Assembly (NCBI GenBank): GCA_964430665.1
Contig: CAYSFC010000001.1
Span: 361-64,360, forward strand
Origin: an uncultured Methanosarcinales archaeon
GTDB taxonomy: Archaea > Nanobdellota > Nanobdellia > Woesearchaeales > SKGA01
DNA length: 64,000 nt
Reading direction: 5' to 3'
Shown: one piece after another, positions 39,567 to 47,695 of the stretch
Numbering within the stretch: the stretch's first letter is position 1
Layout of the letters: every line of letters begins with the position of its first letter
Notes under the pieces: model-generated
Told to the model about the DNA's origin: nothing
What the model saw: only the letters and a program-made list of their open reading frames with translations
Databases searched by the model: none
Made by a program: the position numbers and the translations under genes

Positions 39567-39665
39567 CTATGCTGTTCGTTTACGCTTTTCTTTTTTCATT
39601 CTTTTTCGTTGCCACTTCCAACGCATTTGACCTTTCTTTTTCCATCGTCTACTTGATCGTTTCAT
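39567..39665 (-). CDS. rpl41e: ribosomal protein L41e (32 aa; absent from ORF track)
   Basis: manual translation MKRSSRRWKKKGQMRWKWQRKRMKKEKRKRTA; RWKW...KR core of eL41. Confidence 0.65.
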   Translation of the reverse strand: MKRSSRRWKKKGQMRWKWQRKRMKKEKRKRTA

Positions 39666-39738
39666 TTTTATTTTACCTTTTATTTTTTATTTGAAAAACA
39701 ATAATATTTTCTAGTAACATATTTACTAAGAAAATGAA

Positions 39739-40189: not shown

Positions 40190-40190
40190 C

Positions 40191-40308
40191 CAAAATAAAA
40201 TGTGAGCCTACGGGGATTCAACCGAACGAATTTGTAAGTGAGCGTTGTGCTGGAATAAATATGACAGCATGTTCAAATCCCAAAATAAAATGTGAGCCTA
40301 CGGGGATT
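40191..40308. repeat. 28-bp perfect direct repeat (CAAAATAAAATGTGAGCCTACGGGGATT) at 40191-40218 and 40281-40308 = duplicated tRNA-Ile 3' end plus flank, enclosing scrambled tRNA-derived fragments
   Basis: seen directly; the intervening 62 bp contains inverted copies of tRNA-Ile D/anticodon/intron segments. Confidence 0.6.
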
Positions 40309-40402: not shown

Positions 40403-40407
40403 AGATA

Positions 40408-40519
40408 TGCACCGACCGGGAATCGAACCCGGGCCGAAGCCTCTTTGCAAGATTGAAGATTATTAAAATTTTCTTCACATCTATGGCAAGGCCCCATTGT
40501 ACCATTCAACCACCGGTGC
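40408..40519 (-). tRNA. tRNA-Gly (anticodon GCC) with 41-nt intron at 37/38 (intron 40443-40483)
   Basis: acceptor GCACCGG/TCGGTGC, T-arm CCGGG-TTCGATT-CCCGG, anticodon stem GGGCC/GGCTT (two G-U), loop TT-GCC-A; intron hairpin GAAGA...TCTTC. Confidence 0.55.
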
Positions 40520-40611
40520 AAGACGTAGATTTAAGAGAAAGAACTTTATTTAAAAAGGTTTTGATAGATTAAAATAGTTTCATTTATAAATGTTGAATTT
40601 TTAAATAGAGT

Positions 40612-47421: not shown

Positions 47422-47586
47422 ATTGTGTGTTCAAATACCTAAAAATGTGGCTCTACTGGGATTCACCTGAGCAAAGCGAACGGTGTGCAGGAATAGAATG
47501 ACTAGCACAACTGAGCAAAGCGAACGGTGGACAAGAACTATAGTGATTGTGTGTTCAAATCCCTAAAATATGGCTCTACTGGGATT
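47422..47586. repeat. ~41-bp direct repeat (ATTGTGTGTTCAAAT[A/C]CCTAAAA(T)ATG[T]GGCTCTACTGGGATT) at 47422-47463 and 47546-47586 = duplicated tRNA-Arg 3' end plus flank, enclosing a decayed pseudo-tRNA with an internal 19-bp repeat (47467-47485, 47511-47529)
   Basis: seen directly. Confidence 0.6.
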
Positions 47587-47644
47587 TGAACCCAGGTTAC
47601 AAGCTCCGCAAGCTCGCGTCATGTCCAGACTAAACTATAGAGCC
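47571..47644 (-). tRNA. tRNA-Arg (anticodon GCG)
   Basis: acceptor GGCUCUA/UAGAGCC, T-arm CTGGG-TTCAAAT-CCCAG, anticodon stem CGAGC/GCTTG, loop TT-GCG-GA. Confidence 0.6.
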
Positions 47645-47695
47645 ATAAAAAATAGAAAAAGAATTAAATTTATATTTTTTTAGAAAAAAGAAAAA

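Follow-up and report, generated by a model that had tools for sequence, protein, structure and literature searches.

Williams is said to have treated, in 2002, integrative elements in tRNA genes according to their T-loop or T-stem sublocation. CIMEs are cis-mobilizable, att-flanked and integrase-less derivatives of integrative and conjugative elements (ICEs) in streptococci; they are kb-sized and their mobilisation was shown experimentally. A different route to repeated sequence is template switching (FoSTeS/MMBIR), in which an inverted copy of neighbouring sequence comes to lie between direct duplicates and microhomology is found at the junctions. Among 3919 islands in Islander, 3760 have 3' fragments and 1836 have T-stem-region sites, and the 26-bp core of Ms6 extends from the T-arm to the 3' end (PMC4383910, PMC1762012). 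Standard island finders discard candidates <2 kb (Islander; PMC4383910, PMC1762012), so that scars of less than 200 bp would be overlooked. In archaea, related introns across tRNA genes of Thermoproteales have been discussed as 'intron transposition', with the mechanism of spread acknowledged as unknown (Fujishima 2010; PMC4090602, PMC4033280), and a model for tRNA-Thr of Caldiarchaeum subterraneum proposes that integration of a mobile element causes gene disruption and intron gain (Sugahara 2012, PMC3293823).

The window, i.e. the whole stretch of 64,000 nucleotides analysed here, is archaeal DNA with ~28% G+C and is contained in a public scaffold (ENA ERZ23495300 MUDA16-1 scaffold_21). Its SepF neighbour showed at best 82% identity to protein-database homologues (P0002) and at best 78% to homologues in named Woesearchaeota/Nanoarchaeota genomes. 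The tRNA-Arg(GCG) gene of the window carries a 3'-end duplication of the att type, which is real and non-random and represents a known kind of structure in an unusual miniature and recurrent form.

Anatomy of two tRNA loci in the window

The tRNA-Arg(GCG) locus comprises the following features:

47570/71-47644/45 (-): functional, intron-less tRNA-Arg(GCG) (ARAGORN 47570-47645; Rfam tRNA 47571-47644, 59.1 bits)
47546-47586 (-): proximal repeat copy, 41 nt, AATCCCAGTAGAGCCA + TATTTTAGGGATTTGAACACACAAT
47553-47563 (-): segment GGGATTTGAAC, antisense to positions 53-63 of its own T-arm
47464-47545 (-): spacer X-Arg, 82 nt, without ORF, two diverged tandem units of ~44 nt each
47422-47463 (-): distal displaced repeat copy, 42 nt, AATCCCAGTAGAGCCA + CATTTTTAGGTATTTGAACACACAAT

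Read on the minus strand, the 3' end of tRNA-Arg is ...CTGGGTTCA-AATCCCAGTAGAGCCA, followed by TATTTTAGGGATTTGAACACACAAT, 82 nt of X and AATCCCAGTAGAGCCA-CATTTTTAGGTATTTGAACACACAAT. The first 16 nt of the proximal copy (47571-47586) are the tRNA itself from A58 in the T-loop to the discriminator A73; behind this tRNA tail follow a T-run, the antisense T-arm segment and 7 nt. The repeat thus extends from A58 (AATCCC) to 25 nt beyond the discriminator. The preliminary description had reported this direct repeat, and alignment of its two copies (41/42 nt), which differ by 2 substitutions and an indel of one base, confirmed it. Blocks complementary to the T-arm (GTTCAAAT(A/C)CC), also reported there, are indeed present in both copies at 47429-47439 and 47553-47563; one copy reads GGGATTTGAAC, the other GGTATTTGAAC, and each is the reverse complement of its own T-arm. 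The segment at 47553-47563 forms an 11-14-bp inverted repeat with 47581-47594 (93% complementary), the match is significant in local alignments against shuffles (z=4.5), and in the folded sequence the T-arm pairs with the trailer. The distal copy is preceded by GGTG and therefore has neither a T-arm 5' half nor the 3' half of a bulge-helix-bulge (BHB) motif.

The cores of the two X-Arg units (47464-47493 and 47508-47537) are 87% identical at a spacing of 44. An internal duplication seen in the preliminary description, CTGAGCAAAGCGAACGGTG at 47467-47485 and 47511-47529, is exact and belongs to this tandem repeat with a period of 44 nt; the sequence occurs exactly twice (chance expectation 0). 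X-Arg overlaps no ORF of at least 60 codons. A repeat search of the window revealed no inverted repeat linking the spacer ends, and Rfam 15 covariance models matched the tRNA alone, with spacer and distal copy scoring far below the gathering scores. The poly-A stretch upstream of tRNA-Arg (~47675-47685) has 7 A in the window and 6 in the public scaffold (L066 ~9615), which is an assembly-version or strain difference.

The same architecture, as already noticed in the preliminary description, is found at a second tRNA gene 7 kb away, where a perfect 29-nt repeat flanks 61 nt:

40292/93-40402 (-): tRNA-Ile(UAU) with canonical 37/38 intron and intact T-arm (Rfam; ARAGORN -i)
40280-40308 (-): proximal repeat copy, 29 nt, AATCCCCGTAGGCTCACATTTTATTTTGG
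40219-40279 (-): spacer X-Ile, 61 nt, without ORF
40190-40218 (-): distal repeat copy, 29/29 identical to the proximal copy

The structure of the tRNA-Ile locus was seen in three independent assemblies, and its repeat ends 13 nt beyond the discriminator. X-Ile consists of GATTTGAAC (antisense T-arm), ATGCTGTCATATTTATTCCAGCAC, which is antisense to the anticodon stem, the anticodon loop and the intron start of tRNA-Ile, and 26 nt of no assigned origin. The antisense alignment of X-Ile to its own tRNA gave z=6.3, with 12 nt matching exactly across the junction of anticodon loop and intron. A GG microhomology (2 nt) lies at the junction of trailer and antisense segment, and the core of 22-26 nt has no template or second copy within the 64-kb window. 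Default ARAGORN missed both tRNA-Ile(UAU) and tRNA-Gly(GCC), which were detected by Rfam and ARAGORN -i; tRNA-Gly(GCC) (40407-40520 (-)) has a canonical 37/38 intron of 41 nt, and the intron of tRNA-Ile(UAU) has 36 nt. A small ORF downstream of tRNA-Glu (window ~39575-39670 (-), MKRSSRRWKKKGQMRWKWQRKRMKKEKRKRTA) looks like ribosomal protein L41e.

X-Arg and X-Ile are homologous and collinear (z 7.7-7.9, p=0.001 in a shuffle test). Their common order is antisense T-arm, TGCT(A)GTCAT..TATTCCWGCACAMCGYTC.. and GKTG directly before AATCCC, and the core motif has no occurrence in the window besides the Arg and Ile loci.

Observed strain polymorphism, recurrence, directionality and family relationships

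A contig from another sample (L068) is 97.1% identical to the window over 7 kb. It leads from inside the tRNA through a single 41-nt copy to the distal flank (...ACACAAT directly followed by TAAATTTG) and has no X. The Arg feature is therefore an insertion/deletion polymorphism of ~124 bp, present here and absent from the sister strain; the difference is made up of the 82-bp X and a second copy of the 41-bp target segment. As this contig has a single copy and no X, X is not native downstream DNA, and the feature cannot be explained by simple tandem duplication. At the three variable sites of the repeat, the L068 states (T, T5, GGG) are shared with one or the other window copy, which is compatible with an ancestral single copy. 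L068 retains the antisense T-arm, a segment elsewhere seen at duplicated loci alone, and for this reason may have arisen by deletion, through recombination between the repeats, and not be a virgin site. The direction of the polymorphism (gain or loss) we infer. For tRNA-Ile, the orthologous gene in L001 is without duplication (empty site). Logan short-read contigs break inside the repeat or the tRNA's T-loop (L067 at position 1, L195 at its end, 2619, and L068 at position 1); assemblies therefore probably under-represent such loci or contain them in fragments.

We surveyed 65 SepF-linked loci of Woesearchaeota-type genomes (~0.96 Mb including the window, with 32 ARAGORN tRNAs) for a second copy of the last 16 nt of each tRNA gene with at most 2 mismatches. 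Twelve of the 32 genes have such a 3'-end copy downstream on the same strand, 63-167 nt away, where ~0.002 are expected by chance; none of the 32 has a copy upstream or on the opposite strand in inverted orientation. Together with the homologous spacers (p=0.001), this bears out the earlier claim that the pattern recurs and is not due to chance. A long-range scan revealed copies at short range alone (90-183 nt) and none beyond ~180 nt at any locus. The identity blocks begin in the T-loop (AATCC...) or at the T-stem and continue beyond the tRNA end. The lengths of the duplications vary from ~16 to ~50 nt, and the inserts of related loci have 50-170 bp and are sometimes stacked in arrays. Affected isotypes are Arg, Ile, Cys, Val, Ser-CGA and Ser-TGA. 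An antisense T-arm is found in 8-9/12 duplicated loci versus 0/20 others (8/12: Fisher p=5e-5); the match is significant against shuffles in 8/12 loci, and the segment follows the T-loop variant of each tRNA (GAGTC, GAATC, AAATC).

Arrays with 2-3 tail copies and spacer modules a, b and c are present at tRNA-Cys (L005 19083-19420, L010 10151-10400, L012 8263-8500). The order of the modules is constant in the three species and their presence or absence is variable. Module c (CGGAYTYGAAC-RTCTGCG...CTTGA-hairpin-AATCC) was located at the following positions:

L012 8428-8499: spacer module c
L013 2077-2144: spacer module c
L184 1097-1162: spacer module c
L005 19353-19411: spacer module c

It is common to tRNA-Cys, tRNA-Val and one further tRNA of unassigned isotype in four genomes, with 74-85% identity. 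The SepF genes of the corresponding species pairs are 72-75% identical at the nucleotide level, and this comparison argues for mobility or selection. The 5-bp stem of the module c hairpin shows compensatory changes (GTTCC/GGAAC, GTTAT/ATAAC, GTTAC/GTAAC). Rfam had no match for module c, and a search of ~1 Mb with a covariance model brought up no more members. A metagenome scan with a gapped module-c pattern was too loose, as it returned 120 stretches of which all but L184 were chance matches; the chance hits served as a control set.

Within this control set the architecture recurs at a bacterial-looking tRNA-Met (L115 664-960, OBLI01000067.1; also L139, L148, L189). The part of tRNA-Met from the T-loop on, together with the hairpin terminator, is present a second time 167 nt downstream, and an antisense T-arm segment, GTTGGACTTGAA, lies between the copies. 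In the close pair L017/L019 the spacers diverge by ~10% versus 3% for SepF DNA, i.e. roughly neutrally, and the distal copy of L019 carries C56>T as an example of tRNA-lethal changes accumulating in distal copies. A candidate decayed distal copy in L193 was rejected (11/16 matches, not significant, p~0.09). At L013 1918-2041 ARAGORN calls a tRNA-Ala(CGC) and Rfam stays below threshold; the stretch looks like a tRNA-Val(TAC) with an intron of ~48 nt in the D-arm region (cf. L011 2406-2481).

Our preferred explanation, to which we assign a probability of roughly 45%, is that these structures are footprints of a family of miniature insertion elements that target the T-loop of tRNA genes and bring a replacement 3' end, giving an att-type duplication. 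Insertion at the 3' end of the live tRNA-Arg(GCG) gene would have produced a regenerated tRNA, foreign DNA and a displaced 3' fragment in direct orientation, the geometry that Campbell-type integration, with crossover in the T-loop, of DNA carrying its own replacement 3' end produces; a directional, T-loop-anchored duplication which leaves the gene intact is the classical mark of such integration at tRNA genes. X may be a miniature non-autonomous member or an end-remnant of a mobile element family targeting tRNA T-loops, for whose movement in trans a recombinase gene at another place is presumed. In this view the distal copy would be a non-functional relic that could be lost again by recombination between the repeats, and the hypothetical circle junction of an excised Arg insert would read GCTCAGGTG-AATCCC...ACACAAT-CACTATAG. 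The collinearity of X-Arg and X-Ile, the modules found across species, the arrays and the strain polymorphism favour a family of small sequences, mobile or mobilisable, over twelve independent accidents.

Site-specific recombination at tRNA 3' ends had been one of the processes proposed in the preliminary description. The geometry fits this proposal; from it we infer a recombination mechanism and mobility in trans, and neither an integrase nor an attP carrier was detected. The cognate integrases and the viral or plasmid sequences with an att-like core that were envisaged earlier did not turn up: the Pfam-annotated genes in the +/-10 kb around both loci include no integrase, IMG/VR, phage and plasmid collections yielded no attP-like or X-like sequence, and BLAST searches of phage and plasmid collections gave no match for X. 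Likewise, 60 T-arm sites in ~1 Mb revealed no kb-scale elements flanked by repeats. Viral-contig scans with the spacer/att junction, module c and three tRNA tails gave chance matches in unrelated phages and phage tRNAs and were rejected.

Three further points count against a mobile element. A circle of 124 bp is implausible as a recombination substrate. The antisense T-arm matches the T-loop variant of its own tRNA, and it is no general property of T-loop att sites, being absent at E. coli ssrA/CP4-57. Finally, the 12 nt of X-Ile that are antisense to its own anticodon loop/intron junction look locally templated and not imported. An insertion of the IS/MITE type was discarded on other grounds, since terminal inverted repeats are lacking and the length of the duplication is neither fixed nor short.

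T-loop introns in orthologous tRNA genes

SepF-linked orthologues of tRNA-Arg(GCG) in L001, L002, L003, L006 and L196 have an insert of 30-50 nt at T-loop position 59/60. This intron site of the relatives is where the duplication in the window begins. Introns at 59/60 were found at:

L001 7721-7840: 59/60 intron
L002 10449-10610: 59/60 intron
L003 6098-6250 and 13311-13480: 59/60 introns
L006 4463-4580: 59/60 intron
L196 ~1325-1465: 59/60 intron
L012, near contig end (-): 59/60 intron
L025, L026, L049 and L061: 59/60 introns

The tRNA-Ile of L003 carries a 59/60 intron that is paralogous to the intron in the tRNA-Arg of the same contig, and tRNA-Ile of L001 has none. L010 with a duplication and L012 with a T-loop intron of 144 nt form a second pair of duplication and intron. 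Woesearchaeota tRNA genes commonly carry such T-loop 59/60 introns, of 16-144 nt, which are invisible to ARAGORN. After their removal in silico, ARAGORN called a tRNA in 11/11 cases; the isotype call is not always reliable for genes that also have a canonical intron. As the 3' half of a BHB we took 4 nt able to pair with positions 54-57 and a further 2 nt directly preceding T60. All 11 introns obey this rule with at least 3/4 pairs (chance 14% each), and in the 5/11 introns folded the T-stem was closed around an intron hairpin (z -1.5 to -4.8 versus shuffles). Hidden T-loop introns are a possible reason why tRNA-Val and tRNA-Trp have been reported as 'missing' from complete Nanobdellota genomes, and they suggest that 'missing' tRNAs of ultrasmall archaea may hide behind T-loop or D-arm introns.

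The duplicated loci differ from this pattern. At the distal copies of the window the BHB rule gives 2/4 pairs for Arg and 1/4 for Ile, which is chance level, as is the number of distal copies that pass across all duplicated loci (2/13); the distal copy of L032 is BHB-competent. The window loci need no splicing, for the proximal copy completes the tRNA (59 bits). A role of the distal copy as an alternative 3' exon behind a long T-loop intron was rejected, as the BHB rule fails and the T-arm folds with the trailer. X showed no significant similarity to the T-loop introns of relatives (best p=0.03 in 18 tests), and a homology of X and introns seen by eye was lost under shuffling. Comparing the 5' ends of introns with their own 3' exons, of which they might be decayed copies, gave no significant result either. 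The link between duplications and T-loop introns is thus positional and phylogenetic alone; it is suggestive and unproven.

A possible, if doubtful, way to join both observations is that duplications and 59/60 introns are two faces of one process, in which small mobile sequences enter T-loops together with a spare 3' end and the outcome is either loss of the insert or dependence on splicing. The insert might be lost by recombination between the repeats, or the proximal tail might be lost, which would leave a splicing-dependent gene. If true, non-canonical tRNA introns would be gained and lost by a pathway acting on DNA. The converse would be that selection favours T-loop introns because they destroy the insertion site.

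An alternative, which we consider unlikely, is turnover of T-loop introns. X and the distal copy would then be an old 59/60 BHB intron and its 3' exon, bypassed by an intron-less 3' end with trailer; in a variant, duplication of the 3' end would be the first step of intron gain, and recombination between the repeats would give a clean intron-less gene. This would account for the introns in the orthologous Arg genes of five relatives and the Ile gene of L003, for the L010/L012 pair, for the coincidence of duplication start and intron position and for the intron-like size of the X units (~44 nt). It would also fit that all 11 introns obey the BHB rule and give an ARAGORN tRNA after removal in silico, that the five folded have energies below those of shuffles, and that the Arg and Ile introns of L003 are paralogous, as are the X spacers in the window. 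Against it stand the lack of significant similarity of X to introns and of intron 5' ends to their own 3' exons, as well as the failing BHB rule at the distal copies (2/4 and 1/4 in the window, 2/13 passing overall). Arrays with three copies and the bacterial example, where BHB splicing does not occur, are a misfit, and a DNA-level route to an exact exon-exon junction is not evident.

Further explanations and comparison with known systems

Local errors of replication or repair represent a second alternative, one without a mobile element. A fork stalling at the highly transcribed, palindromic T-arm could lead to switches of the template strand and thereby to a duplication-inversion-duplication, and the T-arm homology could permit ectopic copying between tRNA loci. 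The inverted copy of the gene's own T-arm at 8-9/12 duplicated loci and 0/20 others would be explained directly, as would the antisense relation of X-Ile to its own anticodon loop/intron junction with 12 nt matching the window allele; for both antisense stretches local template switching is the better explanation. The GG microhomology at the junction and the same architecture on a bacterial contig are also in line with it, and an integrase would be unnecessary. In contrast, the spacers of different tRNAs are homologous beyond the similarity of the tRNAs themselves, modules are 74-85% identical between species whose SepF DNA is 72-75% identical, and the X-Ile core of 22-26 nt has no template in the 64-kb window. 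As an account of the whole feature we therefore regard template switching as improbable.

It is very unlikely that the structure is a functional ncRNA or cis element, in which antisense T-arm and distal 3'-end mimic would affect maturation or stability of the tRNA, or X and the distal copy would act as scaffold-plus-guide RNA. The co-variation of the antisense segment with the T-loop variant, the conservation across species and the module c hairpin, whose pairing is kept by compensatory changes, would agree with a function. However, the element is dispensable in a 97%-identical strain and sits behind a T-run terminator, distal copies have acquired tRNA-lethal changes (C56>T in L019), spacer divergence between L017 and L019 outpaces that of SepF, and no Rfam match was obtained. 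A C/D-box or H/ACA guide RNA was rejected, as inspection of both strands revealed no C/D or ACA boxes and Rfam gave no match.

Hardly conceivable is a simple tandem duplication of the tRNA gene with decay of the second copy to a pseudo-tRNA, as suggested in the preliminary description from the direct repeat with its 124-nt period and a CTATAG stretch resembling the 5' part of the tRNA: similarity of spacer and tRNA in sense orientation is at chance level at all 12 loci, the sister strain has a single copy, which places X outside the native unit, and X has a homologue in the spacer of another tRNA. The degenerate tRNA body in the same orientation that had been seen in the spacer dissolves accordingly. 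Its sense alignment is not significant (p~0.125), the significant similarity is the antisense one to the T-arm (z=4.5), and CTATAG is a palindrome in spacer unit 1, where unit 2 reads CATTCTATTCC.

The same orthologues exist in three allelic states within one small clade: plain, with a T-loop intron, or with tail duplication and mini-insert. The feature thus bears on the gain or loss of T-loop introns in archaeal tRNA genes, and as one of them is a polymorphism within a population, the question is testable by comparative genomics and tRNA sequencing. The findings point to a class of tRNA-linked insertions of less than 200 bp which standard island finders discard. If these are merely decayed integration sites, the scars are still a record of how heavily tRNA T-loops have been targeted in DPANN genomes, which bears on the idea that introns shield tRNA genes from integration.

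Compared with known systems, the loci resemble integrative elements in tRNA genes that depend on tyrosine integrases (Ms6, SSV1). Common to both are a regenerated tRNA, a 3' fragment in direct orientation, an identity block from the T-arm to beyond the 3' end, tandem arrays and strain-specific occupancy. These elements have at least 2 kb, whereas 61-83 bp lie between the repeats of the window; here, integrase, cargo and a detectable free form are absent and an antisense T-arm is nearly always present. CIMEs share the att-flanked, recombinase-less organisation and the proposed movement in trans and tandem accretion, but they are kb-sized with experimentally demonstrated mobilisation, in contrast to tiny inserts whose mobility is presumed. 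Non-canonical archaeal BHB introns occur in the T-loop of the same orthologues and, as here, related sequences are found in different tRNA genes; they require splicing, which the window loci do not need, and the window loci have neither a BHB 3' half nor significant sequence similarity to the introns of relatives. The tRNA-Thr locus of C. subterraneum is comparable in its population heterogeneity at one tRNA gene and in the direct repeat of a tRNA fragment around an insert. It differs by an insert of 1.8 kb, a recombinase gene and a 5' piece, while the inserts described here are gene-less, shorter than 200 bp, associated with 3' pieces and widespread. From FoSTeS/MMBIR events, finally, the loci are distinguished by their scale of tens of bases, by recurrence at many tRNA genes and by spacers that are common to several loci and species.
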